Part shown: one piece after another, positions 2,967-60,935 of the stretch | Numbering within the stretch: the stretch's first letter is position 1 | Layout: every line of letters starts with the position of its first letter | NCBI GenBank assembly: GCA_934096595.1 | Contig: CAKOMH010000001.1 | Span: 494 to 64,493 of the forward strand | DNA: 64,000 nucleotides | DNA from: an uncultured Bacilli bacterium | GTDB taxonomy: Bacteria > Bacillota_I > Bacilli_A > RF39 > UBA660 | Direction of reading: 5' to 3' | Program-made: the position numbers and the translations under genes | The notes under the pieces: model-generated | Seen by the model: only the letters and a program-made list of their open reading frames with translations | The model's database searches: none | What the model was told of the DNA's origin: nothing

Positions 2967-3045
2967 ATTGATTCCCCCAATCAATTACTCTTTCATGTAC
3001 ATCTCAAGTTGTTTTCGCCACATATGTTAACACAAAATACACATC

Positions 3046-3074
3046 TTGTCAATCAGTATTCGATATGATATAAT
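3046..3074 (+). promoter_or_regulatory. Sigma-A type promoter for ssrA: TTGTCA, 17-nt spacer, TATAAT. The predicted TSS at about 3082-3083 coincides with the tmRNA 5' GGGG.
   Basis: TTGTCA at 3046-3051 and TATAAT at 3069-3074, with an exact 17-bp spacer. Confidence 0.7.
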
Positions 3075-3082
3075 TTACACAC

Positions 3083-3452
3083 GGGGCAGCATTGGTTTCG
3101 ACAGATATTTGTAAATTTTAGATGGCAAGTAGTCATGAAAACGACTTAAAATTTTCAATTAAATTTAAATGACGAAACAGAAGGAAACTTTGGTTTCAAT
3201 TTTGCTCCTTCATTTGCTTAAGTAAGCATTGGAGCTGCTTATTCTAGATTTATCTGTGATTTAGTTTAAGTATAATATTAGCGGATTATATTATTTTATT
3301 TGATTAGAATAAAATAATGAATAATATCTAATCTAGTTATAAATAAGGTAAGTTAAAGCCATTTTTATAATGAAATTCAAGTTTTAACTAAACTTGTAGA
3401 AGTCTAAGGTTTAGATATTTGGACAGGAGTTCAACTCTCCTCTGCTCCACCA
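3083..3452 (+). ncRNA. ssrA: tmRNA (SsrA), about 370 nt. It has a 5' GGGGCAGCATTGGTTTCGACAG acceptor/tRNA-like half and a 3' T-arm-like GAGTTCAACTCTCC plus GCTCCACCA end. The internal tag ORF ends ...NFGFNFAPSFA-TAA.
   Basis: The 5' and 3' ends match the hallmark tmRNA tRNA-like domain. The tag reading frame GAC GAA ACA GAA GGA AAC TTT GGT TTC AAT TTT GCT CCT TCA TTT GCT TAA gives a degradation tag ending in FA, as in Mollicutes/Erysipelotrichia-type tags. There is a consensus promoter upstream and a terminator downstream. Confidence 0.85.
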
Positions 3453-8554: not shown

Positions 8555-9208
8555 TTATACCTCCAAATATTTTTCTATATTTTCTAACATTTCTTGTGGA
8601 TTATCATTTACTTCTATATTTTCCAATTTACCAATTTTTTTAAAATAATCTAAAACTGGTTTCGTATCTTCAATATAGGTTTGATATCTAACTTTAAAAG
8701 TTTCTTCCGTATCATCGGCTCTAACTTCTAATTTACTTCCACAAAAATCGCATATTCCATCGACCTTAGGCTTAGTAGCCTCTTTAAATTTATTAAAGCT
8801 ACTCTTGCAATTACTGCAAATCATTCTTCCTAAAGTACGATGCATCGCCTCTTCATAATCGACATCAAGATAGATAACTACATAATCATTAATATTAAGT
8901 TCATTAAACAAATTAATTAAGGAATCAACTTGTTTAACATTTCTAGGATAACCATCAAGGATAAATCCTTTTTTAGCATCATCTTGTTTAATTCGATTTT
9001 CTAATAATTCTAAGACAATTTCATCTGGTACTAACTTGCCAGAAGACAACATTCCAGCAAGCATTTTCCCAAATTCATCATTCTTAGATTTTGCATCTCT
9101 TAGTAAATCACCTGTAGAAATATGAACATAATTATATTTATTTTTTAATAATGTACTCATAGTTCCTTTACCAGCAGCAGGAGGAGCAATAAAAATAATG
9201 TTTTTCAT
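8555..9208 (-). CDS. adk: Adenylate kinase (with Zn-finger lid)
   Basis: P-loop GAPGAGKGT-like motif and a C-x2-C...C-x2-C lid. Confidence 0.95.
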   Translation of the reverse strand: MKNIIFIAPPAAGKGTMSTLLKNKYNYVHISTGDLLRDAKSKNDEFGKMLAGMLSSGKLVPDEIVLELLENRIKQDDAKKGFILDGYPRNVKQVDSLINLFNELNINDYVVIYLDVDYEEAMHRTLGRMICSNCKSSFNKFKEATKPKVDGICDFCGSKLEVRADDTEETFKVRYQTYIEDTKPVLDYFKKIGKLENIEVNDNPQEMLENIEKYLEV

Positions 9209-10473
9209 TATCTACGATGCCTTCTTCCCTCACGGTAACTACGACTTACTAATGAACTTTCTAGTTGTTTATAAGTTTCAATAGCAACACCAACGACAAT
9301 TAAAAGTCCAGTGCCACCTATTGTTACACTACTAGGTAAACCTGAAAATTTAGAAAAAATTATAGGTAACCCAGCAATAATTACTAGAAAGATTGATCCT
9401 ACGATTGTAAGTCTTCCAATAACCTTGGAAATATAATCAGTAGTATCAGCTCCCGGTCTAACTCCCGGAATATAACCACCATTTTTATTTAAGTTTTTAC
9501 TCATTTCTTCTGGATTCATTTCCATAAAAGTATAGAAGTATCCAAAGAATAATATAAGTACAACATATAATAGAAAACCAGTAGGACTTGTATAAACAAT
9601 ATAATTGTTAACAAAGTTTATTGCGCTTTCATTACCAATCAAATTAACAATCGTAGTTGGAATAGTAATAAGAGTTGATGCAAAAATTACTGGCATTACT
9701 CCAGCCGCATTCAACTTAATAGGTAAATATGATGTTTGAGCACCATAAGCACTATTGGTACGATTAGAATACTGAATAGGTACTCTTCTCTCTGCAAGTT
9801 GAATAAATACAACGCCTAGAATAATTAAAATATAAACTATTACAAATAAAGCAAATAATAAGCTACCAACAACAGTAGAATAACTGCCAGATGTAACTAA
9901 GCTTTGGAAAGCCGTTACAAACATTGAAGGCATACTTTGAATGATACCAGCCATGATTAATAATGAAATACCATTACCAATACCTTTAGTAGTTACTTGA
10001 TCGCCTAACCAAAGTAGGAAGCAAGTACCTGCTGTCATAACAACGGTAGTCTTTAAAATATCAAGACTAGACATTCCTTTCATATATACAATAGTTAAAA
10101 TGTAACCTTGAATAAATGCAAAGATAATACCTAAATATCTAGTAATTCTATTGATTTTCTGTCTACCAGTATATCCTTCTTCTTTTAATTCTTTAAAATA
10201 AGGAATTATATCCATTTGTAATAATTGTGTAATAATAGATGCTGTGATGTATGGTGAAACACCAAGAGCAAATATTGAAAAACTTCTAAGACCACCACCG
10301 GACATCAAGTTAAATATTTCTAAGAAACCAAGTTCTTGATATAAAGCTGATGCCCAAGGGATAGTAATAGTTGTACCTAGGCAAAATAAGCCTAAGCACA
10401 TAAGAGTAAAATATATTCTTTTTCTTAAATCTTTATTAGAAGGACTAAATAGTTGCTTCAAACCAGCAAACAT
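9208..10473 (-). CDS. secY: Preprotein translocase subunit SecY
   Basis: A 10-TM protein with SecY signature regions. Conserved position. Confidence 0.95.
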   Translation of the reverse strand: MFAGLKQLFSPSNKDLRKRIYFTLMCLGLFCLGTTITIPWASALYQELGFLEIFNLMSGGGLRSFSIFALGVSPYITASIITQLLQMDIIPYFKELKEEGYTGRQKINRITRYLGIIFAFIQGYILTIVYMKGMSSLDILKTTVVMTAGTCFLLWLGDQVTTKGIGNGISLLIMAGIIQSMPSMFVTAFQSLVTSGSYSTVVGSLLFALFVIVYILIILGVVFIQLAERRVPIQYSNRTNSAYGAQTSYLPIKLNAAGVMPVIFASTLITIPTTIVNLIGNESAINFVNNYIVYTSPTGFLLYVVLILFFGYFYTFMEMNPEEMSKNLNKNGGYIPGVRPGADTTDYISKVIGRLTIVGSIFLVIIAGLPIIFSKFSGLPSSVTIGGTGLLIVVGVAIETYKQLESSLVSRSYREGRRHRR

Positions 10474-19470: not shown

Positions 19471-19916
19471 TTTCAATATGGATTTAAATTTCAAAAACTA
19501 TTTTCTTAAAAAAATTCCATTAAAATATTATTAGAAAATAAAATTAAAAGCTTAAACAAGCTGACATTACAAACAGAATTAACTAATACACTAATAATTA
19601 TTTTTAACACTATATATCATAATGTTTTTATTATTAATTCTTATCATTAATTCTTATCATTAATAAAAATTCAATTAAGCCAATCACTAATATTTATATC
19701 AAAAAAAGAACTAAAAATAGGAAAACTAAAAAAAAGAAAAAAGCCCTTATCAAGCAATAAGAACTTTAAAGAAAAAAGCTCCTATCAAACAATAAGAACT
19801 TTTTAAAAGCAATTTAGAAACAATTTATCTGCTAAAAAACAATTAGTATATTCTCATCTTTAAATAATTTTCCAACACTTACTATTTCTCACAGCAAGCA
19901 CTGGAGGATCTAACTA

Positions 19917-21443
19917 TTAATTTTCTTTTTCTAAAGCTTCATCAACAAACAAGATATCAGTATCTTTCATTTCGGGAGGACAAGCAATATCCATATATTT
20001 AAGGATAGTCGGAGCAACCATAGTTAAATCACCATTTTTTAATTTAACATTATTATCCGTAACAATAAAAGGAACAGGATATAAAGAATGCGTTGTTATA
20101 ACATTATCATTATCATCAAGCATATAATCACAGTTTCCATGATCAGCCATTATAAATAATGTATAATCATTTTCTTGAGCTTTAGAATAAATACTTCCTA
20201 AACAATAATCAACAACTTCTAAAGCCTCAATTGTTGCCTCCAAATTACCAGTATGTCCAACCATATCTGGGTTAGCAAAGTTAACTAAAATAAAATCATA
20301 ATCTTTATCTAAACATTCTAGACATTTTTTTGTTACTTCTTTACAACTCATTTCTGGTTTTAAATCATAAGTAGCAACTTTAGGACTAGGAACTAAATAG
20401 CGATCACATTTTTCTAATTTATATTCCTTGCCACCATCAAAGAAGTAAGTAACATGAGCATATTTTTCCGTTTCCGCAATACGAGCTTGTGATAATCCTA
20501 ACTCTTCTAAGTAAACACCTAAACTATTTTCAATATCTGGTGTATCTAAAAAATGATAAGATTTTTTAGCTTCTTCAATTGGATAAATCGTAAACACTTG
20601 TAAATTTTTATATTTAATCGTGTCATATTCTTTAAAACTATTATCTGTTAAAACTTGTAAAATTTGCTTTGCACGATCAGGACGATAATTCATCCATAAA
20701 ACAACATCGCCATCTTGTATTTTAGGTGTATCTTCCATCACAATTGGTGGCAAGAATTCATCAGTAACATTTTTTTGGTAGCAAAAATTAATTGCTTCTT
20801 TTAAATTTTTAACTCTAGCCCCTGTTCCTAAAGTCAACATATCACTATATAATTTAGTTCTATCCCATTTCTTATCTCTATCCATGGCATAATATCTACC
20901 ACAAACACTAGCTACTTCATTATAACCGTACTCTTTTAACTTAGCATTTGCCTCATCAATATAATTTTGACTGGTAGTTGTTCCTGTATCACGGCCATCA
21001 GTAATAGCATGAACATAAACTTTTTCAATTCCCATTTGGTGCAAATAATCAAGCATCCACAAATTAAACTTAATATGGGAATGGATACCACCATCTGATA
21101 GCAATCCTAACATATGAATTGGCTTATCATTTTCTTTAGCATATTCAACCATTTTTAAAAAATTTTCGTTTTTTAAAATTTCTTTTTTATTAAACCAATC
21201 GGTTATTTCCATAAAGTTTTGTTTAATTAAACGCCCCGCGCCAATTGTTGTATGCCCAACTTCACTATTGCCCATTTGACCTTTTTCTAAACCAACCGCT
21301 CTTTCACTAGCTAGTAATTGACTATGAGGATATTCATTCCATAATTTTTTAAAGTTTGGCATTTTAGCTAATTTTACCGCATTACCATGAATGGCATTAC
21401 GAAGTCCAAACCCATCTAATATTATTGTTAATACTTTTTTCAT
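19917..21443 (-). CDS. gpmI: 2,3-bisphosphoglycerate-independent phosphoglycerate mutase
   Basis: iPGM family throughout (…LDGFGL…, metal-binding motifs). The start was set to the ATG at 21443 (MKKVL) behind an AGGAG RBS; the track start at 21452 is a GTG inside the RBS. Confidence 0.93.
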   Translation of the reverse strand: MKKVLTIILDGFGLRNAIHGNAVKLAKMPNFKKLWNEYPHSQLLASERAVGLEKGQMGNSEVGHTTIGAGRLIKQNFMEITDWFNKKEILKNENFLKMVEYAKENDKPIHMLGLLSDGGIHSHIKFNLWMLDYLHQMGIEKVYVHAITDGRDTGTTTSQNYIDEANAKLKEYGYNEVASVCGRYYAMDRDKKWDRTKLYSDMLTLGTGARVKNLKEAINFCYQKNVTDEFLPPIVMEDTPKIQDGDVVLWMNYRPDRAKQILQVLTDNSFKEYDTIKYKNLQVFTIYPIEEAKKSYHFLDTPDIENSLGVYLEELGLSQARIAETEKYAHVTYFFDGGKEYKLEKCDRYLVPSPKVATYDLKPEMSCKEVTKKCLECLDKDYDFILVNFANPDMVGHTGNLEATIEALEVVDYCLGSIYSKAQENDYTLFIMADHGNCDYMLDDNDNVITTHSLYPVPFIVTDNNVKLKNGDLTMVAPTILKYMDIACPPEMKDTDILFVDEALEKEN

Positions 21444-21832
21444 TAAAATCACTCCTAATAAATATTGATACTAAATTTAACTTTTTATCCATCTTCTTCT
21501 TTGATTATTTAAAATTACTCTCACATTTTCTCTATTTATTGCAAGCCTAATTACTTTAATAAAACAGCTTTAATAAGTAGTTATTAAAAAATTATTTAAC
21601 TATGATAAAACTAAACTTATACCAATCTCTTTTCTTATATTAGCAATCAAATATTACCATAAAAGACCCTTTCTTTTCAAGATTTATTCCATCATTTTCT
21701 AAACTTTATAAGATTAATTTGTTAAGAATAATTTGCCTCATAATACAATACCTTATATCTTTTAATTTTGCTAAAAAAACAAATAGAAATAAAAACATTT
21801 AATAAAATAGAATGAAAAAAATAGAAAAAATG

Positions 21833-21877
21833 GAAAGAATAGAAAGAATAGAAAGAATAGAAAGAATAGAAAGAATA
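21833..21877. repeat. Tandem 9-bp repeat (GAAAGAATA) x5, inside a longer purine-rich tract (about 21800-21880).
   Basis: Five exact head-to-tail copies. Confidence 0.8.
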
Positions 21878-22012: not shown

Positions 22013-22780
22013 CTAATTATTACCGCCTTTAAACTCTAAACAAAGCTTGTCAGCAATTGTCGCTAAAAATTCTGAATTAGTAGGTTTAGCTCTATCAAAA
22101 TCAACTGAATGTCCAAATATTTCTTCCATTAAATCATAATCGCCCCGAGTCCAACTAACCTCGATTGCGTGTCTAATAGCGCGTTCTACCCTTGAAGGCG
22201 TTGTATTATATTTATCAGCAATAAAAGGATAAACTTCTTTGGTTATACCACCTAAAACATTGGGATTATTATACATTAACTCAATCGAATCTCTAATATA
22301 TTGATATCCCTTAATATGACTAGGCATCCCAAGATCATGTAGTAATCGTGAAATTTCTTTAGTCATTTCTTGAATAGGTTTATTTTCTTCTAAAGCATCT
22401 TTTGCCTTTAATTTACCAACATCAAGAATTCTATCTTCTAATAAATTTAAATCTGTTCCTTTATAAAGAATAAACAAAATTCTATAATCTCCTAATAATT
22501 TAAGTAAATCCAAATTAGTATTATGAGTATATAAAATTACCCGTTTATTAATATTTTCGTTTTTTAAATATTTTAAAATGCCAACCCCATCAAAAGAAGG
22601 TAAAACTAAGGATAACACAATACAATCAATTTCATCTAAATGTTTTTTAATTGCTTCTAATCCTTCTAAACCATCACTGTATTTATATTTTATATTAACC
22701 TGCGTACTACTCTTTGAATCCAAAAACTCCGTAAATTCCTTAATACTAGATACTTCATCTATCATAAGTACATTTATCAT
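22013..22780 (-). CDS. Spo0A-family transcription factor with a divergent, apparently phosphorylation-incompetent receiver domain. The C-terminal Spo0A_C DNA-binding domain is intact.
   Basis: The C-terminus PSHIKGYQYIRDSIELMYNNPNVLGGITKEVYPFIADKYNTTPSRVERAIRHAIEVSWTRGDYD...AKPTNSEFLATIADKLCLEFK aligns nearly motif-for-motif with the B. subtilis Spo0A effector domain. The N-terminus has a receiver-like hydrophobic pattern, but the phospho-acceptor position reads …DCIVLSLVLP… (Ser where the Asp is expected) and the acidic pair reads D-E. ATG at 22780 with an AAGGGAG RBS. Confidence 0.8.
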   Translation of the reverse strand: MINVLMIDEVSSIKEFTEFLDSKSSTQVNIKYKYSDGLEGLEAIKKHLDEIDCIVLSLVLPSFDGVGILKYLKNENINKRVILYTHNTNLDLLKLLGDYRILFILYKGTDLNLLEDRILDVGKLKAKDALEENKPIQEMTKEISRLLHDLGMPSHIKGYQYIRDSIELMYNNPNVLGGITKEVYPFIADKYNTTPSRVERAIRHAIEVSWTRGDYDLMEEIFGHSVDFDRAKPTNSEFLATIADKLCLEFKGGNN

Positions 22781-22850
22781 ATTTTCTCCCTTTTTTCGTA
22801 CTACATATATTCATTATAAATATTTTCTTTACAAAATTCCACACTATTTT

Positions 22851-22868
22851 TTGACAACATTTGTCGAA
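22851..22868. promoter_or_regulatory. Inverted-repeat element TTGACAACATTTGTCGAA containing a perfect Spo0A-box heptamer TGTCGAA (22862-22868). It lies about 70-90 bp upstream of the spo0A-like start.
   Basis: The 0A box consensus is TGNCGAA. GACAA and TTGTC form inverted arms. Confidence 0.45.
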
Positions 22869-23032
22869 TAAAAGTAACTTTCTTATTTATAACTTAAACT
22901 CACATTTTATAACTTCAATAAAAATAATTTATTTTTTATTTAGTATCCTTTATTTCAACTCCCACCTTTTATTTCAATCTCCATCGATTTACTTATAATC
23001 ATTTTTACAAATAGCTCTAACTTTAAAAAATT

Positions 23033-24232
23033 TTATAAAACTTCTTCTTTATCGGCAATAGCATTAATTGCTGGCAAGTTCTCATTTATAATATACTCCA
23101 ATGTCGCCCCACCACCAGTTGAAATGTAGGTAAACTTATCTTTCATATTAAATTTATCGATTGCCCCAATACAGTCGCCACCTCCGGCAATAGTCTTAGC
23201 CATACTTGATGTAACGATATTTAGTAATTCTAAGGTTCCATTACTATATTTGGGTTCTTCATAAATACCAGCCGTTCCATTCATAAAAATAGTCTTTGAT
23301 TCATCAATTATTTTTTTATAAATCTTCAAAGTCTTTGGACCTATATCTCCAATTATTTCATCATTTTCAATTTTATTGATATCTTTACTAACAACAAATG
23401 TTTCATCATATTTTTTTCCCACGATAGCATCAAATGGTAAAACAATTTTTTTATTATATTCTCGTAAAATATCTTTAACTTTTATAAGTGTTTCTGAATC
23501 AAGAGTAGCAAGTGATTCGCCCGTTTTAAGTCCTAAAGATTTAAGACAGCTATTAGCAAGACCTCCCGTAAGTAACATATGACTACATTTTGGTAATAAT
23601 TTTTCTATCAAAGGTAGTTTATCGGCAATTTTAGCGCCCCCCATAATTATGGTAAATGGCATTTCAGGATTTAAAACATATTTATTTAGCATATCCATTT
23701 CTTTTTGAACACAAAATCCCAAGCAACTAGGAATAAATTTAGCAATACCACTAGTCGAGGCATGCATACGATGACTACTAGCAAAAGCATCTAACACAAA
23801 AATATCACCTAAAGAAGCAAAATAGGCTGCTAACTGGGGATCATTATTACTTTCAAAACCGTTTGGTACATCTTCAAAGCGGGTATTTTCAACTAACAAT
23901 ATTTCTTTTAGTTGTAACTCCATAGCTTTAATTTCCAAAAAGCTACTCCTTGTCTCTGGCGAAAAAATAACATTACTACTAACTAATTCATTTAATCTTT
24001 CAGCTACAATTCGCAAACTGTACTTTTTCTTATCTTCTTCGGTCTTCACCTTACCAAAATGAGATAATAAAATAATTTTACAATTTTTATCAATTAAATA
24101 ATTAATCGTTTCTAAAGAAGCTTTTATCTTCGTATCGTCTAAAATTTTCCCATCCTTTACTGGAACATTAAAATCACAACGCACAATAACTCTTTTATTT
24201 AAAACATCCATCTCTTGTAACAAACACTTCAT
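23033..24232 (-). CDS. pgk: Phosphoglycerate kinase
   Basis: PGK family throughout (N-terminal RxDFNVP, C-terminal GGGA...). ATG at 24232 with a GGAAGGAAG RBS. Confidence 0.95.
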   Translation of the reverse strand: MKCLLQEMDVLNKRVIVRCDFNVPVKDGKILDDTKIKASLETINYLIDKNCKIILLSHFGKVKTEEDKKKYSLRIVAERLNELVSSNVIFSPETRSSFLEIKAMELQLKEILLVENTRFEDVPNGFESNNDPQLAAYFASLGDIFVLDAFASSHRMHASTSGIAKFIPSCLGFCVQKEMDMLNKYVLNPEMPFTIIMGGAKIADKLPLIEKLLPKCSHMLLTGGLANSCLKSLGLKTGESLATLDSETLIKVKDILREYNKKIVLPFDAIVGKKYDETFVVSKDINKIENDEIIGDIGPKTLKIYKKIIDESKTIFMNGTAGIYEEPKYSNGTLELLNIVTSSMAKTIAGGGDCIGAIDKFNMKDKFTYISTGGGATLEYIINENLPAINAIADKEEVL

Positions 24233-24235
24233 ATG

Positions 24236-24766
24236 CTACTTCCTTCCTTTTATATAATTAACTGGTAACTCTGAAATAACTCTTTCAACCGCTAAGCACT
24301 TTGTTCCCTCTTCTTTTTCAATATTATTATAAGCTCCTAAATCAGCTTTATCAAAAAATATAGCACCATCTATTAACATTGGTTTATAAGGTTTTCCATT
24401 TTCAGCACTTTGTTGCCCCAAAAGTAAATCATTGTATACTTTTTTTAAATTTTCAATAACAGAATTGCTTAATCCAACCTCATCATAATAAATAGCCAAA
24501 GAAATTGTATCATTAGTTAAAGGATTAGGTAACACTTGAACAACTATTCCTTTGACCGATTTAGCAACCAAAATACCTAGTTGCATAACATTATTTTCGT
24601 TAGATGATATTATCGAATAACCATCATTTTTTAATCTTTTGGCTATTATTTTTAGCATTTCCAAATGCGGTGAACTGGCCTTATTAATTTCCTCTGAACA
24701 ATCTTCATAATAGACCTTATTATCCGTTATCACAATCATTCGTGCATTATTTCTGTCATAATTCAT
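24236..24766 (-). CDS. Hypothetical 176-aa protein inserted between gap and pgk. It is not TpiA.
   Basis: ORF track. No TIM-barrel motifs and no recognisable family. Confidence 0.5.
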   Translation of the reverse strand: MNYDRNNARMIVITDNKVYYEDCSEEINKASSPHLEMLKIIAKRLKNDGYSIISSNENNVMQLGILVAKSVKGIVVQVLPNPLTNDTISLAIYYDEVGLSNSVIENLKKVYNDLLLGQQSAENGKPYKPMLIDGAIFFDKADLGAYNNIEKEEGTKCLAVERVISELPVNYIKGRK

Positions 24767-26385: not shown

Positions 26386-28044
26386 TCAACTTTCAAAACA
26401 TGAACCACCAATAAATTCCCGAAGCACACAATCATCTGCAATATACTCACTAGAGATTGGATAGTAGTTTTTCAAGAAATTGATAAGTCTTCTTGCCTCT
26501 TCATAATACACCGAATCGGTACCAACCGAGTAAAGAAGTGGCTCTGCAAAAACCTTCAAAACGCCTAGCTCATATACTAACGATGTATTAATAATAACAT
26601 CACTAGTATTAATATAAGGGAAAATGTACTTTTCCTCACCACTGCGAACATCTTGCCATGAACAAATAGTTTTACTAACATCATTTCCTCTTGTTCTGTT
26701 ATCTCTTATCATTCGTCTTATCAAACGCAAATCAGTCGTACTTATATAATTGTTACTATCTAAGTTAAGCGGCATAAAAGGACTTAAATATATTTTGTAC
26801 TTAATATCATTATTTATGTATGGTGTTAGTTCATCATTTAAACAATGCAAACCTTCCATTAAAATAATATAGTTATTATCAATCTTTGTCTTTCCCTTAA
26901 CAAATTCTCTAACTCCTGACACAAAATTATAAGTAGGAAGAGAAACTTCTTTGCCAACCAATAAATCATTAATATCCTTGTTTAAACTTTCAACATCTAT
27001 AGAAGCAATACTTTCAAAGTCATACTTACCATCAGGAAGCTTTGGCGTATCAACCCGATTTTTGAAATAGTCATCAACACTAATAGTTAAAGTTTTAATT
27101 CCCCTTGCCTGTAAATCCAAAGACAGCTTTTTACATGTCGTTGTTTTACCACTACTAGAAGGACCAGCAATCATAACAAACTTACTATTTCTTTCTAATA
27201 TCTTCGTAGCAACTTCATGAATTTTATTATCATAATTAATTTCACTTAAACGAATTAAATCTTTAATTTTACCACTAGCTACCACTTTATTAACCTGATA
27301 AACATAAGGAATATCTAGGCTTTTCAGCCAATTTTTTTCGTTTTTAAAACATTCAATAACCTTTTCATAATGGACATAAGATGGAACTTCATTCTTACTT
27401 CTTGGTGTTGGAAATAGTAAGACTACTTCTGAATCATTTAAAGCTACTAAATCAAACCTGCTCAAACAACCTGTACTATAAGGCATTTCTACATAGAAAT
27501 AATCAAAATAATTTTCTAATTTATACAGCGTTACTAAAGCATCATCAATATTTGAAACATTATAACAATTAGGAATTTTATTTTCTTTTTTATAAAATTC
27601 AACCATTTCTTTACTAAGAACATTCATCTTTAATATTCTTAAATCATCACTAATTATCTTAGTCATTCGTTCTTTAATTCTAATAATCTCTTTATTAGTA
27701 ATCTGCAAACCATTAATTGTTATGTGCATACCACGCATAATCGAATGGTCAAAACTTACCCCAATTTCTTTACCAAAAATATCGTAAACAGCGGCTAAAA
27801 AAACAAACTTTAAACCTGCTTGATACATTTTATAACCAGCTAAATCGTTGCTATCAATAAAATTAATAACAGTATCTCTCTTTAATTTCGTATCCATGCT
27901 TACAATAGCATTATCTATTTTCGAACCAACCACTCTTGTTTTTATTTGCGGGGGCAGTAATTTTACGATATCAATTATCTTTGTATTTTTATCAACTTCC
28001 AACTCTTTACCATTATTGTAAACAATTTTAATCTTATCACTCAT
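26386..28044 (-). CDS. Uridine kinase-family P-loop kinase fused to an N-terminal TGS (ThrRS/GTPase/SpoT-like) domain
   Basis: The N-terminus has a TGS-like beta-grasp pattern (KIKIVYNNGKELEVDKNTKIIDIVKLL). The centre has a Walker A GPSSSGKTT and a uridine/cytidine kinase-like core. Confidence 0.75.
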   Translation of the reverse strand: MSDKIKIVYNNGKELEVDKNTKIIDIVKLLPPQIKTRVVGSKIDNAIVSMDTKLKRDTVINFIDSNDLAGYKMYQAGLKFVFLAAVYDIFGKEIGVSFDHSIMRGMHITINGLQITNKEIIRIKERMTKIISDDLRILKMNVLSKEMVEFYKKENKIPNCYNVSNIDDALVTLYKLENYFDYFYVEMPYSTGCLSRFDLVALNDSEVVLLFPTPRSKNEVPSYVHYEKVIECFKNEKNWLKSLDIPYVYQVNKVVASGKIKDLIRLSEINYDNKIHEVATKILERNSKFVMIAGPSSSGKTTTCKKLSLDLQARGIKTLTISVDDYFKNRVDTPKLPDGKYDFESIASIDVESLNKDINDLLVGKEVSLPTYNFVSGVREFVKGKTKIDNNYIILMEGLHCLNDELTPYINNDIKYKIYLSPFMPLNLDSNNYISTTDLRLIRRMIRDNRTRGNDVSKTICSWQDVRSGEEKYIFPYINTSDVIINTSLVYELGVLKVFAEPLLYSVGTDSVYYEEARRLINFLKNYYPISSEYIADDCVLREFIGGSCFES

Positions 28045-28310: not shown

Positions 28311-29708
28311 CTAATCAAAGTTCCAAAACGACCAAGAGCCTAAAATATTATCCCAAAAATCTTGTACCTTAGAACTAACATTATCTTTTTTCGCCTGCGA
28401 CATTTCACTATAAGAACGAGTCTTACTAACATCTAAAGAATCAATAGTAATTTTATTAGAAGTATTGTAATCAACATTAGTACTTATATTAGTCTTATAA
28501 ATAAAAGTATCTAAAGAAACATTGATATTTAACAATCCCTTTATTCTATCTTGACTACTTTTATCTAACTTATTATTAGCATTAACATTAAAAGTCATTC
28601 CTAAACGAGTAAATTTACTGCTAAAAGTCAAAGCATCATCAGCATTATAATAATTAAAACTAGTTAACAATTTATTTTTAGCATAAATCGCCCCATTTAT
28701 TTTGCCGACATCATCTTTAGTAGTTTCTAACTTATAACCAGTTTTTGGTAAACTTAAACTCATTTTTTTAGAACTGGCCATATAACTAAAATGAACAACG
28801 CTACTATTATTACCTATTTCAATCATAGCAAATTTATTTAAAAGACCAGAAGTATAAATATTTATCTCTAAACTTTCTTGCATATCATTTATAGCGTTTG
28901 CAATGGTTTTATCGATATCTATCTCCGAATTAACATCATCAATAAAATTATAAACAATTTTTTTCAAATAATATTTAGCGGAATCATTCAATTTACTATA
29001 AATACTACTTAATGTATCTTTATCTAATTTTAAAGTATATTTTTTAAAATTAACATTCTCCTCATTAAATGTTCCTTTGTTACGATAAGTATTATTATTA
29101 TTAACACTATCTAAAACGGCATTCTTTAAACCCTCAATAGCCTTATCTATCGAAACATCTTTAGAACTAATCCCTAAATTATCTTTTTTAAATAATTGAA
29201 AATTAGTTAACTTGCAAGTAAAATCATTTTTATCAGTACAATTGGAAACATCATAAACATTATCTAAAAGACTCGAACTTGCAATATAGGTTTTATCCCC
29301 ATCATAAAATACAGTGCCATCAATAATATTCTGATTGTTTTCTAAAACCCTACCCGATAGTTGCAATTTTTCATTATCAAAATCAGCAAAACCATTTATA
29401 CTAAAAGAATCTTTATTTAAAGTATTACTTAATAAATCACCTTTCAATTTAATATTGGCCTCAAATTGCATTTTTCTATCCAAATTCTCAACATTATCAA
29501 TTTTTTTAAAAGTTTTAATAATACTTTGCTTAATAACATACTTTGGATTATTCATTAGAATTAAAAAACTAGCACTTAAAATACCCAGCATTATTAACGA
29601 AAAAATACATATTTTAAACCACTTACTAGACTGAATTTTCTTACCTAAATTAAAATTTTTATCTCCATTTTTATAAAACAAATTATTCTTTAAATCACTA
29701 TTATTCAT
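28311..29708 (-). CDS. Hypothetical type-II membrane protein: a short cytoplasmic N-terminus, one TM, and a large Asn/Lys-rich extracytoplasmic domain.
   Basis: ORF track. TM segment FKICIFSLIMLGILSASFLILM. Confidence 0.55.
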   Translation of the reverse strand: MNNSDLKNNLFYKNGDKNFNLGKKIQSSKWFKICIFSLIMLGILSASFLILMNNPKYVIKQSIIKTFKKIDNVENLDRKMQFEANIKLKGDLLSNTLNKDSFSINGFADFDNEKLQLSGRVLENNQNIIDGTVFYDGDKTYIASSSLLDNVYDVSNCTDKNDFTCKLTNFQLFKKDNLGISSKDVSIDKAIEGLKNAVLDSVNNNNTYRNKGTFNEENVNFKKYTLKLDKDTLSSIYSKLNDSAKYYLKKIVYNFIDDVNSEIDIDKTIANAINDMQESLEINIYTSGLLNKFAMIEIGNNSSVVHFSYMASSKKMSLSLPKTGYKLETTKDDVGKINGAIYAKNKLLTSFNYYNADDALTFSSKFTRLGMTFNVNANNKLDKSSQDRIKGLLNINVSLDTFIYKTNISTNVDYNTSNKITIDSLDVSKTRSYSEMSQAKKDNVSSKVQDFWDNILGSWSFWNFD

Positions 29709-36494: not shown

Positions 36495-36935
36495 ATGAAT
36501 GGAACATATTATCAAAACCCAACTTTCCCAACTAACCAAAATAATTATGATGTCAACATGAATTCTATCCCGAATAATCAAGGTCTTCCTAACAATAACA
36601 ATATGGCTAATAGCACAAATATTCCAAGTACAATAAACAACTACAATCCTGATTATAATCCCACCACATCACTGCCTATGGAGCAAAGTTATATTGAAAA
36701 TATTTTAAGGTTGAATAAAGGAAAAATGGTTAAAGCTTATGTTAGTTTTCCGGATTCTACCGAATGGCGCAACAAAATTTTTGCAGGGCGCATTGAAGAA
36801 GCAGGTCGCGATCATCTAATTATCAGCAACCCCAACACTGGTGAGTGGGATTTAATTTTAATGATTTACTTAAATTATGTTACCTTTGATGAAAGAATAA
36901 ACTATAGCCATAGCTATTCACAAAAGAACTTCTAA
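36495..36935 (+). CDS. gerQ: Spore coat protein GerQ (YwdL)-like, with an N/Q/P-rich N-terminal region and a conserved C-terminal domain
   Basis: C-terminus SYIENILRLNKGKMVKAYVSF..S.EWRNKIFAGRIEEAGRDHLIISNPNTGEWDLILMIYLNYVTFDE closely resembles the GerQ core. N-terminus rich in N/Q/P. Confidence 0.65.
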   Translation: MNGTYYQNPTFPTNQNNYDVNMNSIPNNQGLPNNNNMANSTNIPSTINNYNPDYNPTTSLPMEQSYIENILRLNKGKMVKAYVSFPDSTEWRNKIFAGRIEEAGRDHLIISNPNTGEWDLILMIYLNYVTFDERINYSHSYSQKNF

Positions 36936-55791: not shown

Positions 55792-55844
55792 AAAACTCTA
55801 TTACGCAATTTTCTATTTTTTTAGATTTTGCGTAATAGAGTTTT
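55792..55844. terminator. Perfect 17-bp inverted repeat (AAAACTCTATTACGCAA-N19-TTGCGTAATAGAGTTTT) between convergent genes. Bidirectional terminator or hairpin; the right arm contains the stop codon of the Gly-rich gene.
   Basis: Arms at 55792-55808 and 55828-55844 are exact reverse complements. Confidence 0.6.
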
Positions 55845-57258
55845 ATTCATCTATACTCGCCAAAGTTATTCTGGCATAACCATTGCCTTTTTTAGCACAA
55901 TAACTAATAGGCGTTTCTTCATTACAAGTAGTTGATATTGTTTTCGTACTCTCTTCATTAGACTCTTCACAATTGTAACAGTACATAACTTTGTTAGTTA
56001 AAAGCAAATTCCCGATATAACCTGAGCCACCGCCGCCAGCATTAAAATCTTCTCCGTAAGCAGAATTTATATTTCCACCATAAAATCCGCCACCGCCACC
56101 AGACACACCGTTACTATAGCCTATTCCTGTTCCGTCGCAACCTTTTCCAAAAGCACAGCCAGATATTTGATTTCCGCCAAGTCCACTATTATTTTCTCCT
56201 TGCATTCCAGCTATTCCACCGCCAGAACCGCCGTGTTGAGAATAGTTTCCAGCACCACCACCACCAGATACTATGTAAATACTATTTTTATAATTTTCTA
56301 AACTACTGAGCAAGCCTGATTTTGTGGCAATATGAGTTGCTCCCCCACCTCCGCCGCCAGTTTCAGATTGATTCGTATTTATTTCAAATTTGTTATTATC
56401 CCAAGTTCCAGAACCACCGCCATTATAACCGCCAGCAGTATCTTGACCTTTAACAGCTGTTGAGCCGGTGCCGCCAACATTTAAGTAAACAACATCATTT
56501 TTAGATAAAATAACAAATCCAGATGCAAAACCACCATATCCCCCCAACTCTAGTAAACGACCATCTATTATCGAACTTCCACCTTGTGCGCCCCATGTTT
56601 CTAACTTATAAGTTCCCGATACTGGGGCAATAAAAGTCTGCTCTGCTCCTGTATAATCAAAATTAAATACCATATCACCAGTATAATTAAAATTAATTGG
56701 TTTACCCACTACTACTATTTTAGACTTAAAAGTTTTAATCTCATTATTTAAATCTTCTAAAGTAGTATTATAATCTATCCATAATCTTAAAGAATAATCT
56801 TTACTTTGCCCTGATTTCAAAATACCTGTAGTTAATTTTCTACTTTCAATACTACTAGTATTTACTTTATTTGCATTATCAAAATTACTAAGTAGGTTTA
56901 TTTCTTTAATATCATTATTTTCCAACATGACATCAATAAATTTACTGGATAAAGTACTATTATTTAACACTTCTAAATTAACTGAATACTCAGCAGTTAT
57001 ATCACAAGTATTAATAACCGTAAAAGTATAAGGAGTTAAACTTTTACCCTTATCATTACTTATTGGATAAGCATTATCTAAATTAATACTATTCTCTTGA
57101 TTACTTATAGATAAGTCAAAACACTTAGATTCTGCCATATTAGTAGTATCTTGACTAACCGATATATTCCACATCGAATAAGATACTCCTATACCCAACA
57201 ATATTATTAATACTAAACTTATACTTATAAATATTACACTATTTTTCATAACTTCCAC
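55843..57258 (-). CDS. Secreted glycine-rich repeat protein: an N-terminal signal-anchor and Ig-like domain, then a FIAPVSGTYKLETWGAQGG motif followed by long GGxGG/GGGGG tracts and a Cys-containing C-terminal region
   Basis: Direct reading. Reminiscent of bacterial glycine-rich (Gly_rich-like) secreted proteins. No search was possible. Confidence 0.55.
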   Translation of the reverse strand: MEVMKNSVIFISISLVLIILLGIGVSYSMWNISVSQDTTNMAESKCFDLSISNQENSINLDNAYPISNDKGKSLTPYTFTVINTCDITAEYSVNLEVLNNSTLSSKFIDVMLENNDIKEINLLSNFDNANKVNTSSIESRKLTTGILKSGQSKDYSLRLWIDYNTTLEDLNNEIKTFKSKIVVVGKPINFNYTGDMVFNFDYTGAEQTFIAPVSGTYKLETWGAQGGSSIIDGRLLELGGYGGFASGFVILSKNDVVYLNVGGTGSTAVKGQDTAGGYNGGGSGTWDNNKFEINTNQSETGGGGGGATHIATKSGLLSSLENYKNSIYIVSGGGGAGNYSQHGGSGGGIAGMQGENNSGLGGNQISGCAFGKGCDGTGIGYSNGVSGGGGGFYGGNINSAYGEDFNAGGGGSGYIGNLLLTNKVMYCYNCEESNEESTKTISTTCNEETPISYCAKKGNGYARITLASIDE

Positions 57259-57611: not shown

Positions 57612-59318
57612 TTATTTTCTTTTTTTTATTAATAATCTATCTGCTAAAACATCATCTAACATTTTTAGCGAATCATCTTCATTAATATCTGTATAAAGAT
57701 AATTATTACCAATAATCTCTTGGATTTTAGGAAATTTCTCTAATAACTTACTTAATTTATTAGTAAATAAATAACTATTATTATCATTTATATTCTCTTC
57801 GGAAATACCAGAACTTATATTAGTAAATACATCTTTTAGATCTATCTTTTTATATTCTTCATAAATCTTTTCTATATCTTCTTCTTTAGTATAGTAAATA
57901 GTACTTAAGGCTTTAAAGAAACTATCTTTGATTATTTTATATTGTTTACAAAACTTATCATAACAATAAGTTTCATTATTATTACCTATATCATCTACTA
58001 AGAAGGCTCCATCTGCAATCTGATTAGCAATTAAATAATATAATAAAATATTATCTTCTAAACTTAAATCATTATTATCTATATTATATTTAATTAAATT
58101 ACTTATAGCAATTTTAAATATAGATATATAATGTAAATTACTAAGTGTATCATTTACTTTAAAAATATCATCTTTATCATAATTATCTTTACTACCTAAT
58201 AACTTAATTATATAATTATTTCTACAATCTAAAGCATCCATTGTATATATAATACTTAATATTTCTTTCTTTTCTTCAATATTATTAGCGCCCAAATAAC
58301 TAAATAAAGCCTCTATATCTTCATCATTAATAGCCTTATAATAATCTTTTATTCCATAGTCATTAAAAAGAGAGCATAATAACAATTTATTTTCTAATTT
58401 ACGATAATATTCATAAGTATAAGCAAACTCCTTGCTTAAAGATTCGTAGCCGCCTTCTATTCCTAAATTATATAAAATACTTTCCGCACTTGCTTCCATT
58501 AGAAAACTATGATTATGTCCATTGAAGAAATCAAGCTTTAAAACACCGCCGTTATCTAACTTATCGCTACAAGCCCTTTGTCTTACATGGCTAAGTTCAT
58601 GTTTTACTGTTTCATCAATCCTAGCCAATATTTTATCCAGATCATAACTACTATTTAAAATATTATTTAAGCATATTTCAATAACATTATTACTATAAGA
58701 ATAACTAGCATAGGCAATATTTTCTTCATCATGGCTTGCAATATTGGGAACAAAAACGACACTTAATTCTGTAAAACTATGGATATCTTCATTAGTTCCA
58801 GTACTTAAAACAAATCCTAAATAACTATATAAAGCATTATAAATATCATCTTTTATTAAAGCAATATCTTTTTCACTAAAAGAATAACCATATTCATTAG
58901 TAGCCTTAATATTATTAAAGTAATCCTCATCAAAAAATGAAGTATAATCTAATTCTTTTAGTTCATTTGCCAAGTTAAAAGAATTAACTTTTATTTTAGC
59001 AATCAACTCATCAATAGTAATATTAAAATCTTTTTCACACAGAATATTATCTCTATTAATAAGTTCATCTACTTCTGAATCATTTAATTTAACAACATCA
59101 GTAATTCCCAAATCCGTTAAATTTTTTATATTTTCTTGTAATAAAACTTCTAAGTCTTCTGTTCTATTATTTGAATCAGCCTTACTAACCATATCAATTT
59201 TATTATCTTGTTTACATCCGCAGGCATTTATGGTAACTGTTAAACATAATAGAAAAGATGCTATTCTTCTATTAATATTTTTCACTTTTTCCCCCTGTAA
59301 TTGCCTACTATTATACAC
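57612..59318 (-). CDS. Secreted protein or lipoprotein with an HExxH zinc-metallopeptidase motif (VKHELSHV, followed 30 aa later by MEASAE). Paralog of 59343..60935.
   Basis: Signal peptide with a Cys-containing lipobox-like INACGC. The family is distantly like DUF4932 (HE[FL]xH...EA). Confidence 0.55.
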   Translation of the reverse strand: MYNSRQLQGEKVKNINRRIASFLLCLTVTINACGCKQDNKIDMVSKADSNNRTEDLEVLLQENIKNLTDLGITDVVKLNDSEVDELINRDNILCEKDFNITIDELIAKIKVNSFNLANELKELDYTSFFDEDYFNNIKATNEYGYSFSEKDIALIKDDIYNALYSYLGFVLSTGTNEDIHSFTELSVVFVPNIASHDEENIAYASYSYSNNVIEICLNNILNSSYDLDKILARIDETVKHELSHVRQRACSDKLDNGGVLKLDFFNGHNHSFLMEASAESILYNLGIEGGYESLSKEFAYTYEYYRKLENKLLLCSLFNDYGIKDYYKAINDEDIEALFSYLGANNIEEKKEILSIIYTMDALDCRNNYIIKLLGSKDNYDKDDIFKVNDTLSNLHYISIFKIAISNLIKYNIDNNDLSLEDNILLYYLIANQIADGAFLVDDIGNNNETYCYDKFCKQYKIIKDSFFKALSTIYYTKEEDIEKIYEEYKKIDLKDVFTNISSGISEENINDNNSYLFTNKLSKLLEKFPKIQEIIGNNYLYTDINEDDSLKMLDDVLADRLLIKKRK

Positions 59319-59342: not shown

Positions 59343-60935
59343 TTATTTTAAAACGAATCTAAATTCACTATCATTCTTTATTAAGCCATCTTTAACTATC
59401 AATAAATTATTATAATTAAAATCACTTAAAAAAGTACCACCATTTACTATATTTCTAATTTTAGGAAACTTATTTACTAAATTGGCTATTTTGCTAACAT
59501 CTTCACCACTTACTTTAGATTCTTTAACATAACTACTTATATTGCTTAACCAAATTTCTTTATCTTTATTATCATAATAATCTTTTATATCTTCATAACT
59601 AAGATTATATATTGAACTTAAATAATTAAAATATATCTCTTCAATCAACTTATAATTATCTAAAAATTCTTTATAAAATGTATAACTAACTTCATGAGTA
59701 GTATAATCATAATTACCAAAACTAGCACTATCTAATATATTTACTAAGATAAAATGATATAATATTAAATTATCATCCAAACTTAATACTTCTTTTTGCC
59801 TATTATAAAGTATTAACTGGAGAACACTATTTTTTAATATATAACTTTCAATAATTCCCCCAGTACTATCTGTTAAAAATTCATTTATATTAATATCATT
59901 TAATTTACTAAAATCATCACTATTAATTAATCTACTCCAATAACTATTTCTAACTAATCTTCCATCAATTAACCACAACATACTTAATAAATCTTTTATT
60001 TCTTTATCACTATAAGCATTAAAATAGTTACAAAAATTTAAAATATCGCCTTTAAATAAAGTCTCATAATATTTGTCTATAGATTTATCATTATCTAAAA
60101 AACTTAATAAAAGCAACTTACTTTCATACTTTCTTTCTTCTAAGTTATTATAACTATAATTAAAGTTCTTATTAATTGGTTGATAATTATTTTTTAAAAT
60201 ATTATAGTTATAAGAAGTTGCAACCGCCTCATTTAAGAAAGATATTCCCCCTTCTCCTTTTAATTTATAATGACATTTGTTATCTTCGCAAGGTACTACA
60301 AACATATGATTAAATTCATGATTAATTGTATCAAATAAATTCATATATAAATCATCCAAGTTATTAGCATTCTTTAATATATTATTTAAAGATATAACTA
60401 TCAAATTATCTTTTTCAAAATATTCTCCCAGTTGTTCTTGGTCTTCAAAATCACCCATTAATATTTTTAAAGATAATAACTTATGAACATCATCTTTTCT
60501 TCTCTTATCTAAAAGTACTCTATTAATAATATCTAATATAGTATTTTCTATATATTTTCTTATTTCATCATCAGCTATATCACTAATTAATAAATAATTT
60601 TCTTTATCTTGAATATATATTTTACTATTTAAATTTATAATGTTATATAAATCTATTTTATTGCCCGTAAAGTTATAATCACAAGAAACATTACTAATTT
60701 TACCTATTTTTATTAAGTCTTGTAATTCTTTATCGCTTAATAAAGTCTTAGCATTTAAAGGCATGGTAATATCATTTACTTGATTTATAAAATCAATGTC
60801 ACTCTTAGTATCATCTATAGCCTCTGCTTTAGCCTTAATTAAATGATTTTCTCTTCCATTTATAAAAGAAACTATAGTTATAGAAAGGCAAAGTCCTAAT
60901 ATCGCTCCCATCTTGCCTAAGCTTTTAATTGTCAT
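59343..60935 (-). CDS. Secreted HExxH putative metallopeptidase (INHEFNHMFVVP, followed 27 aa later by NEAVAT). Tandem paralog of 57612..59318.
   Basis: Signal peptide with AKA-EA cleavage. Shares a C-terminal ...KFPKI[QR].I.G... block with its neighbor. Confidence 0.55.
   Translation of the reverse strand: MTIKSLGKMGAILGLCLSITIVSFINGRENHLIKAKAEAIDDTKSDIDFINQVNDITMPLNAKTLLSDKELQDLIKIGKISNVSCDYNFTGNKIDLYNIINLNSKIYIQDKENYLLISDIADDEIRKYIENTILDIINRVLLDKRRKDDVHKLLSLKILMGDFEDQEQLGEYFEKDNLIVISLNNILKNANNLDDLYMNLFDTINHEFNHMFVVPCEDNKCHYKLKGEGGISFLNEAVATSYNYNILKNNYQPINKNFNYSYNNLEERKYESKLLLLSFLDNDKSIDKYYETLFKGDILNFCNYFNAYSDKEIKDLLSMLWLIDGRLVRNSYWSRLINSDDFSKLNDININEFLTDSTGGIIESYILKNSVLQLILYNRQKEVLSLDDNLILYHFILVNILDSASFGNYDYTTHEVSYTFYKEFLDNYKLIEEIYFNYLSSIYNLSYEDIKDYYDNKDKEIWLSNISSYVKESKVSGEDVSKIANLVNKFPKIRNIVNGGTFLSDFNYNNLLIVKDGLIKNDSEFRFVLK

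Follow-up and report, generated by a model that had tools for sequence, protein, structure and literature searches.

In the textbook account of Firmicutes the decision to sporulate is taken through graded phosphorylation of Spo0A on Asp56, and the usual context of the gene in Bacilli and Clostridia is spoIVB-spo0A. Receiver domains in which another residue occupies the acceptor site are familiar from other regulators; HP1021 of Helicobacter pylori, for instance, carries a serine there. Such aspartate-less receivers (ALR) make up about 4% of receiver domains, Glu, Asn, Ser and Gly accounting for 26%, 16%, 15% and 11% of the substitutions, and ChxR, HP1043, FrzS and RitR act without Asp phosphorylation, several regulators of this kind binding DNA in the unphosphorylated state (PMC4395418). 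ALRs are therefore an already known and generally common class, whereas an aspartate-less Spo0A is apparently undescribed; in the literature that we searched on ALRs and on sporulation we found no description of an aspartate-less or atypical Spo0A. We report here on such a gene, carried by a stretch of 64,000 nucleotides from an uncultured Bacilli bacterium (contig CAKOMH010000001.1), the whole of which we call the window. On balance we favour the view that it is the lineage's own syntenic spo0A and not an extra copy, that its receiver has turned into an aspartate-less pseudo-receiver withdrawn from His-Asp phosphotransfer, and that the protein still binds 0A boxes and regulates its own gene.

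When the protein is set beside the Spo0A of Bacillus subtilis or Geobacillus (1lq1, 1fc3, 1qmp/1dz3), one finds the same two-domain architecture with a full Spo0A_C domain, the equivalents of D10, T86 and K108, and the 0A box TGTCGAA upstream of its own gene. It differs from them by the replacement of Asp56 by Ser and of D11 by Glu, by the loss of the aromatic switch residue and of a Pro, by a gene context made of pgk and gpmI instead of spoIVB and recN, and by its host, an uncultured gut bacterium with a small genome.

The membership of the protein in the Spo0A family, proposed in a preliminary description of the window, is borne out by several searches. The C-terminal half matches the Pfam family Spo0A_C (PF08769) from the first to the last of its 104 profile positions (residues 143-246; E 1.4e-40) as well as the solved Spo0A C-domains 1lq1 (1.1e-40) and 1fc3 (about 1e-40), and its recognition-helix motif, NTTxSRVERAIRHAIEV, is the same as that of 1lq1 except at the variable position x. 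The match of the N-terminal half to Response_reg (PF00072) is weak yet above threshold (34.5 bits for a gathering cut-off of 30.2), and the best solved receivers found with a profile of the clade are Spo0A receivers (5wq0, 9phz, 1dz3/1qmp). With Foldseek, the target-normalised TM-score (TMt) is 0.86-0.90 for the C-terminal half against the Spo0A C-domains 1fc3 and 1lq1, while the N-terminal half pairs with receiver domains, among them the Spo0A receiver 5wq0 (TMt 0.84). The NCBIfam equivalog model TIGR02875 (spore_0_A) is missed by 2.6 bits (197.4 bits for a cut-off of 200), a marginal shortfall which is due to the divergence of the receiver. We also checked for a grouping with regulators of the OmpR/PhoB or NarL/FixJ type, which would speak against this assignment: the Pfam scan gave no output domain of the Trans_reg_C or GerE/LuxR type, and CseB, NarL, VanR and similar NCBIfam models match the receiver only, with 13-25 bits for cut-offs of 235-800. 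Hence, from the full-length Spo0A_C match and from the matches to Spo0A structures and receivers, we concluded that the protein is a member of the Spo0A family and not a regulator of the OmpR or NarL type. Many contigs from human-gut metagenomes (Hadza and others) carry an identical protein, flanked by the same genes. The range 22013-22872 first given for the gene has to be shortened: the part 22013-22780 is coding, while 22781-22872 is upstream region and not gene.

At the site of the phospho-acceptor Asp (D56 in B. subtilis) this protein carries Ser57. In the HMMER alignment to Spo0F, the segment dcivlSlvlpsfdg of the query lies over dlvllDmkipgmdg, which puts the Ser on D54 of Spo0F. In the MAFFT alignment with B. 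subtilis Spo0A, the residues D10, D11, D56, T86 and K108 correspond to D, E, S, T and K, that is to D8, E9, S57, T85 and K107 of the protein itself. The AlphaFold2 model, computed from 87 homologs (mean pLDDT 87, receiver core 96-98), shows a regular (beta-alpha)5 fold; as its strands beta3, beta4 and beta5 extend over residues 53-56, 80-85 and 101-106, S57, T85 and K107 are at or just past strand ends. A conserved Asp that a gap in the alignment would bring to the acceptor site was considered as well. This structure-aware check rejected it, the model placing S57 at the C-terminal end of beta3 with no Asp there. The alignments and the model thus agree on the replacement of Asp by Ser announced in the preliminary description, which had also correctly read the acidic pocket as D-E instead of D-D: the equivalent of the Mg2+-binding acidic pair D10-D11 is D8-E9, one residue shorter than the canonical D-D-N. 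With a computed (beta-alpha)5 receiver and a substituted acceptor Asp, the protein is an ALR as far as sequence and model can tell.

The serine is found in all 47 sequences of what we call the S-type clade, where its codon is TCC, TCT or TCA depending on the species. This means that Ser was maintained through synonymous change. The equivalents of T86 and K108 are kept in this clade, T85 and K107 being invariant, while by alignment three other elements of the receiver are shown to be lost. The nucleophile has given way to Ser (D to S57). The aromatic switch residue that precedes the Lys by three positions, F or Y in all but one of the 97 canonical relatives, is I, V or C in the S-type clade, and the Pro after the Lys, present in 97/97 canonical relatives, is replaced by Gly. 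ALRs tend to keep acidic residue 1, Thr and Lys, as this protein does (PMC4395418). It further resembles the ALRs or pseudo-receivers RitR (Asn), ChxR (Glu), HP1043, FrzS (Ala) and BldM/WhiI in that the receiver fold is kept, the acceptor substituted and the output DNA-binding (PMC4395418, PMC3960148, PMC4125116). The known ALRs differ from it by their output domains, which are of the OmpR/PhoB, NarL or other types and not Spo0A_C, and by being mostly orphan regulators of other processes.

To place this receiver among its relatives, we scanned one genome per GTDB species and used the best 80 of 557 related loci. Among these, the closest relatives come from uncultured Bacilli metagenome-assembled genomes (MAGs) and from 'Mycoplasma sp. 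CAG:956' (74-88% identity), the next from 'Coprobacillus sp. CAG:605' (65%) and from an uncultured Bacilli MAG (63%), and the remaining ones form a large set, at about 50% identity, labelled uncultured Tenericutes, Mollicutes or Bacilli. The pocket residues were then scored in about 200 homologs. The canonical relatives have D-D-N...D...T...K-P-F without exception (97/97). In a neighbour-joining tree the atypical sequences make up a monophyletic clade, nested within the Spo0A of the group, in which the erosion began with the second acidic residue (D11 to N, S, G or A) and in which the Pro after the Lys has often been lost too. The acceptor is Asn in a large atypical subclade, and again in P0073/P0080; in the subclade of the window it is Glu (P0042), Gly (P0036) or Ser (the 47 sequences, from at least seven species-level lineages). 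The acceptor would thus have been lost at least two or three times independently, the exact number being uncertain with a distance tree only. In the N-type clade, that is with Asn, the Thr position drifts to Ser or Ala, and one N-type relative bears the NCBI name 'sporulation transcription factor Spo0A'. Judged from these alignments, Ser57 is one outcome of a clade-wide erosion of the phospho-pocket, from D-D-D to D-x-D and then to D-x-N/S/G/E.

The canonical Spo0A of small-genome gut Bacilli (Tenericutes, Mollicutes or Bacilli MAGs and Clostridium sp. CAG:433; loci L017-L086) has the same locus position as the gene of the window and the same TTCGACA box, with an overall identity of 47-55% and a nearly identical effector domain. 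What separates the two is that the canonical loci have the intact pocket motif and mostly tpiA immediately upstream; the window's clade lost both. In the window, the order on the minus strand is whiA, a TGS/PRK-like gene, gap, orf176, pgk, spo0A, gpmI and then the S10 ribosomal operon, so that the succession gap-orf176-pgk-spo0A-like-gpmI was rightly reported. Canonical loci such as L033, L055 and L062 share the succession whiA, PRK-like gene, gap, pgk, (tpiA), spo0A, gpmI, S10 operon, and in nearly all related loci spo0A lies downstream of pgk on the same strand. In 64 canonical loci tpiA is upstream of spo0A, ending mostly about 100-150 bp before it, and the usual canonical orders are pgk-tpiA-spo0A-(x)-gpmI (e.g. 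L033) or pgk-two genes-tpiA-spo0A (e.g. L044). It is absent within 10 kb in 16/16 loci of the atypical clade (L001-L016) and in the window, where tblastn gave no match to it. Neither enolase nor CggR had a Pfam match among the window's open reading frames (ORFs) that were scanned. To the extent of these scans, the statement that tpiA, eno and cggR are not in the vicinity stands. A remnant of tpiA was looked for with tblastn in the spacer between pgk and spo0A and in orf176, and no match was obtained.

The preliminary description had the gene occupying the slot of tpiA. This is contradicted by the 64 canonical loci with tpiA beside spo0A: spo0A already adjoined tpiA in the ancestor of the large canonical group and therefore did not replace it. 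By this comparison of gene orders, the glycolytic neighbourhood is ancestral and tpiA is what was later lost or moved from the lineage of the window. The synteny shared with canonical relatives further means that the gene is the group's spo0A ortholog and not an added paralog, which makes the suggested Spo0A paralog unlikely. The lack of a spoIVB or recN context is real, but it cannot be counted as a peculiarity of this copy as the whole group has none. As for recruitment to the control of carbon metabolism, it finds no support: the ancestral neighbourhood offers no specific argument for it, and in neither of the intergenic regions before gap and gpmI is there a 0A box.

In the loci L017-L086 a terminator-like hairpin often stands after the tpiA gene upstream of spo0A (e.g. 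L033, 9130-9864 and 9989-10753), with the 0A box next; we know of no report of this tpiA-spo0A pairing. In the locus L061, which belongs to a complete chromosome of 1.34 Mb, an ORF of 370 residues (8658-9770) stands between tpiA and spo0A, which shows that the junction tolerates insertions. We take this ORF, judged by eye, to be an IS200/IS605-type TnpB look-alike.

The perfect 0A box reported within an inverted repeat upstream of the gene is indeed there; the repeat is present too, although it is imperfect, as its second half-site has one mismatch. The heptamer TGTCGAA occurs 4 times in the window where 3.28 occurrences are expected, which is no more than chance, and therefore we used conservation across loci instead. 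A perfect TTCGACA in the same orientation lies at most 200 bp upstream of spo0A in 72 of the 80 related loci, canonical ones included. In the atypical clade it is located at -86 to -101 in all loci except L015 (TTAGACA), and the flanks diverge. The box often takes the form TTCGACAAAA; at times it is found in tandem 10 bp apart, at times inverted as in the window, and the arrangement TTCGACA-N(2-7)-TGTC is kept in all the S-type loci shown (L001, L007-L012) and in 6 canonical loci. From this conserved position across relatives, the element is a probable inherited Spo0A operator. It is thus a real conserved element, and autoregulation of spo0A through it, as proposed at the outset, is plausible from the sequence. 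The box stands about 45-50 bp upstream of a conserved TATAAT, a putative -10 element, and this position is compatible with an activation of spo0A's own putative promoter.

The other strict 0A boxes of the window are all located inside the tmRNA gene or inside coding sequence, and the looser motif TGNCGAA occurs 19 times for 11.4 expected. A cluster of 0A-like sequences at 3014-3176 was considered as a possible regulon signal and rejected: two of its three matches are inside the tmRNA gene, whose conserved 5' end contains TTCGACA, and the cluster is for this reason spurious. A consensus scan for promoters and terminators between 19.2 and 26.5 kb was uninformative in this AT-rich DNA, with 51 promoter-like sites for 45.7 expected, and it called no clear terminator after spo0A.

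Selection was estimated from pairwise dN/dS (ratio of nonsynonymous to synonymous substitution rates; NG86) within the S-type clade, where dS is about 0.6-2.3 and the larger values are near saturation. The ratio is 0.014-0.055 for Spo0A_C, 0.09-0.28 for the receiver and about 0.4 to more than 1 for the linker. As it is well below 1 in both domains, the gene is under purifying selection and is not a relic; the same values contradict a pseudogene. The ORF is intact in all the S-type loci and sequences recovered. These results show a DNA-binding domain which is intact and under very strong constraint, and a receiver, folded by prediction, which is under purifying selection.

With Ser at the acceptor site, ordinary His-Asp transfer to that residue is impossible, so that the claim that the protein could not be activated by a phosphorelay acting on this site holds, and control of the switch by a phosphorelay has probably been lost. 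A phosphorylation-independent Spo0A lineage, one of the two possibilities raised in the preliminary description, is the reading which fits the data best. The mechanism that we propose is the following. The protein would no longer be phosphorylated by a histidine kinase or through a phosphorelay; it would bind 0A boxes (TGTCGAA) as Spo0A does, the one upstream of its own gene included; it would activate its own promoter, its activity being set mainly by its concentration, or else by a partner or a ligand acting on the receiver. Its regulon would probably be what remains of the sporulation or transition-state programme, an intact gerQ being found nearby.

Several points weigh against this proposal. 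In B. subtilis the effector domain is inhibited by the receiver as long as the latter is unphosphorylated, and a protein working without phosphorylation requires that this inhibition be relieved. The residues D8, E9, T85 and K107 are invariant in the S-type clade, where a pocket deprived of its chemistry would be expected to decay further. The promoter, and the choice of activation and not repression at the 0A box, are deduced from position alone. Finally, the organism is known from metagenomes alone.

It may be that the lineage no longer sporulates, a possibility that we take seriously while leaning against it: Spo0A, freed of the phosphorelay, would have been kept for the transition state, for biofilm or for replication, and gerQ would be a leftover. 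In a published survey of 180 genomes, 40 non-spore-formers encode Spo0A, and the related genomes measure merely about 1.26 Mb (the contig of L016) to 1.34 Mb (the chromosome of L061). The gene gerQ, 14 kb from spo0A, is the sole sporulation-specific gene recognised in the window; neither there nor in about 9 kb past the right end did we see a further sporulation gene, a histidine kinase, Spo0F/Spo0B or a sigma factor. According to a 2024 study RF39, RFN20 and ML615J-28, three uncultured orders of small-genome Bacilli related to mycoplasmas, have spo0A together with reduced and patchy sets of sporulation genes (PMC10868615). The same study nevertheless expects RF39 and parts of RFN20, and to a limited extent ML615J-28, to form spores; it does not mention the acceptor residue of Spo0A for these orders (PMC10868615). 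Moreover, gerQ is intact and scores above its equivalog cut-off, and public gut metagenomes contain homologs of it at 60-88% identity, several bearing the name GerQ of Bacilli or Bacillota MAGs. A spore-coat protein would have no obvious use in a bacterium which makes no spores.

A second alternative, which we hold to be unlikely, is that Ser57 is itself phosphorylated, by a Hanks-type Ser/Thr kinase or by a histidine kinase acting on the hydroxyl group, and that D8, E9, T85 and K107 are kept for Mg2+ and phosphate. The conservation of Ser in 47/47 sequences despite synonymous codon changes is in line with it, and so is the invariance of these four residues in the S-type clade, where the Thr position does not drift to Ser or Ala as it does in the N-type clade. 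Phosphorylation next to a lost acceptor is also said to occur in CheY, the D57N mutant being reportedly phosphorylated on the adjacent Ser56. The survey of ALRs sees candidate targets of kinases in Ser, Thr or Tyr residues that stand where the acceptor used to be, yet it came upon no receiver, aspartate-less or otherwise atypical, for which control through modification of that position had been demonstrated (PMC4395418). The nearest sisters of the S-type clade, moreover, carry Gly (P0036) and Glu (P0042) there, which means that no phospho-Ser mechanism is conserved at the level of the subclade. Canonical receivers transmit phosphorylation through the aromatic switch residue and the Pro that follows the Lys, both of which are lost here, and no recognisable protein kinase was found in the 64 kb of the window. 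In a wider form, speculative and in our judgement improbable, a whole clade of abundant uncultured gut Bacilli with small genomes would still sporulate, as the retention of gerQ might indicate, without His-Asp transfer to Spo0A, the subclade of the window using a stable phospho-serine in place of the labile acyl-phosphate. Such a switch, if true, would account for the joint retention of S57, D8, E9, T85 and K107, and the master regulator of sporulation would thereby have acquired a novel chemistry.

A third alternative, to which we give little credit, makes the gene a specialised second copy: a canonical, phosphorylatable Spo0A located elsewhere would run sporulation and this copy would serve another regulon, for example glycolysis. 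A distant copy in the same assembly could fall outside the best 80 of 557 relatives, and two or three spo0A paralogs exist in some Clostridiales. Published surveys, however, count a single spo0A in 107 of 118 genomes and report paralogs in Clostridiales alone, not in Bacilli or Erysipelotrichia (10.1101/2022.02.25.481979). Synteny, moreover, makes this gene orthologous to the canonical spo0A found in related species, no locus has two copies within 20 kb, and the distribution of strict 0A boxes given above, with none before gap or gpmI, offers nothing for a glycolytic regulon. The last alternative, a decaying relic whose Ser would be due to drift, is hardly credible: the receiver does evolve several times as fast as the effector domain, the linker comes close to neutrality and the TIGR02875 score is slightly below its equivalog cut-off, but the ORF is intact in all the S-type sequences recovered, dN/dS is well below 1 in both domains, and the ribosome-binding site, the TATAAT hexamer and the 0A box are conserved.

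Returning to the aspartate-less pseudo-receiver which we favour, we asked how widespread such proteins are. In an exhaustive search of 1.84 billion cluster representatives, we scored the 101 best representatives of the Spo0A family with a receiver covering the active site. The acceptor Asp is lacking in 16 of them (E 6, N 6, S 2, G 1, C 1). This means that the phenomenon is wider than the lineage of the window, and it is apparently undescribed. Some of these other aspartate-less proteins (P0167 with Ser, P0135 with Asn, P0178 with Glu, P0170 with Gly) have the same pair of domains, receiver and Spo0A_C, and the same kind of substitution. They differ from the protein of the window in belonging to unrelated lineages (35-45% identity) and in that they may be extra paralogs of the Clostridiales type, while the protein of the window is a syntenic ortholog. 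Three further cluster representatives of 428-454 residues (P0121, P0122 and P0123) show three or four separate Spo0A_C-like stretches, a multi-copy architecture of which we know no other case.

What the window adds is a clade of human- and animal-gut Bacilli with a selectively maintained, syntenic spo0A deprived of its acceptor, in which the near-invariant DNA-binding domain and its box are kept; the count of 16 in 101 suggests that aspartate-less Spo0A is general and under-described. If our reading is true, the presence of spo0A, which serves as a marker of sporulation potential in surveys of gut metagenomes, would need to be qualified. It would also follow that a Spo0A regulon can run without a phosphorelay, as a natural counterpart of the bypass mutants of the laboratory, and that the extant stepwise series D-D-D, D-x-D, D-x-N/S/G/E offers a tractable system for the change from receiver to pseudo-receiver. 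The coordinates of the features are collected in Table 1.

Table 1. Features of the spo0A locus and of other parts of the window (positions in the window; residues numbered in the protein).
Feature	Position	Strand	Basis and remarks
spo0A ortholog, aspartate-less	22013..22780	-	ORF of 255 residues; Pfam, NCBIfam
Receiver (pseudo-receiver) domain, residues 1-122	22415..22780	-	AlphaFold2 fold; Spo0A receivers closest; D8, E9, S57, T85, K107
Codon TCC of Ser57, site of the phospho-acceptor Asp (B. subtilis D56)	22610..22612	-	Alignments and AlphaFold2 model
Spo0A_C DNA-binding / transcription-activation domain, residues 143-246	22043..22354	-	Full-length Pfam match
Ribosome-binding site GGGAG	22786..22790	-	Sequence; 5-nt spacer to ATG; conserved in S-type loci
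TATAAT, putative -10 of spo0A's own promoter	22813..22818	-	Inferred; hexamer invariant in 14 aligned upstream regions
0A box TGTCGAA (TTCGACA on the strand of the gene)	22862..22868	+	-82 to -88 from ATG
Imperfect inverted repeat TTGACAACATTTGTCGAA	22851..22868	+	0A box and one-mismatch second half-site; arms TTGACA / TCGACA
pgk, upstream neighbour	23033..24232	-	Pfam PGK 5.6e-119
gpmI, downstream neighbour	19917..21452	-	Pfam Metalloenzyme and iPGM_N; 560-bp spacer from spo0A
gerQ, spore coat protein, intact	36495..36935	+	Pfam Spore_GerQ 2.4e-34; TIGR02728 112.4 bits for a cut-off of 88.95
tmRNA (ssrA)	3083-3452	+	Rfam RF00023, 119 bits; conserved 5' end contains TTCGACA

Some further observations concern the neighbours of spo0A. 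Between gap and pgk, orf176 (24236-24766, minus strand) has no counterpart in Pfam or NCBIfam. Between S-type species its identity is only 29-41%, compared to 76-91% for the neighbouring genes; strain L002 has it broken into two ORFs, of 76 and 87 residues, and in L013 an ORF of 190 residues is found at the same place. From these comparisons, orf176 would be either fast-evolving or decaying. The protein of 465 residues encoded by orf465 (28311-29708, minus strand), between whiA and the TGS/PRK-like gene, has no family match either; its position is kept, with 38-45% identity between species compared to 68-90% for the flanking genes. The TGS/PRK-like gene itself (26386-28044, minus strand) encodes a protein of 552 residues with an N-terminal TGS domain and a PRK/uridine-kinase domain, and it is located between whiA and gap across much of the group.

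Finally we must note some features of the remaining DNA. Far from spo0A, a protein of 471 residues (55843-57258, minus strand) carries the ALK/LTK glycine-rich domain PF12810 (6.7e-33), which is named for animal receptor kinases; it is flanked by large ORFs without family match (57612-59318 and 59343-60935). The 560-bp spacer between spo0A and gpmI contains a 9-bp tandem repeat in 6.9 copies (AAAGAATAG on the plus strand, 21816-21877), and a 35-bp direct repeat in two copies (19733-19802) lies between gpmI and the S10 operon.

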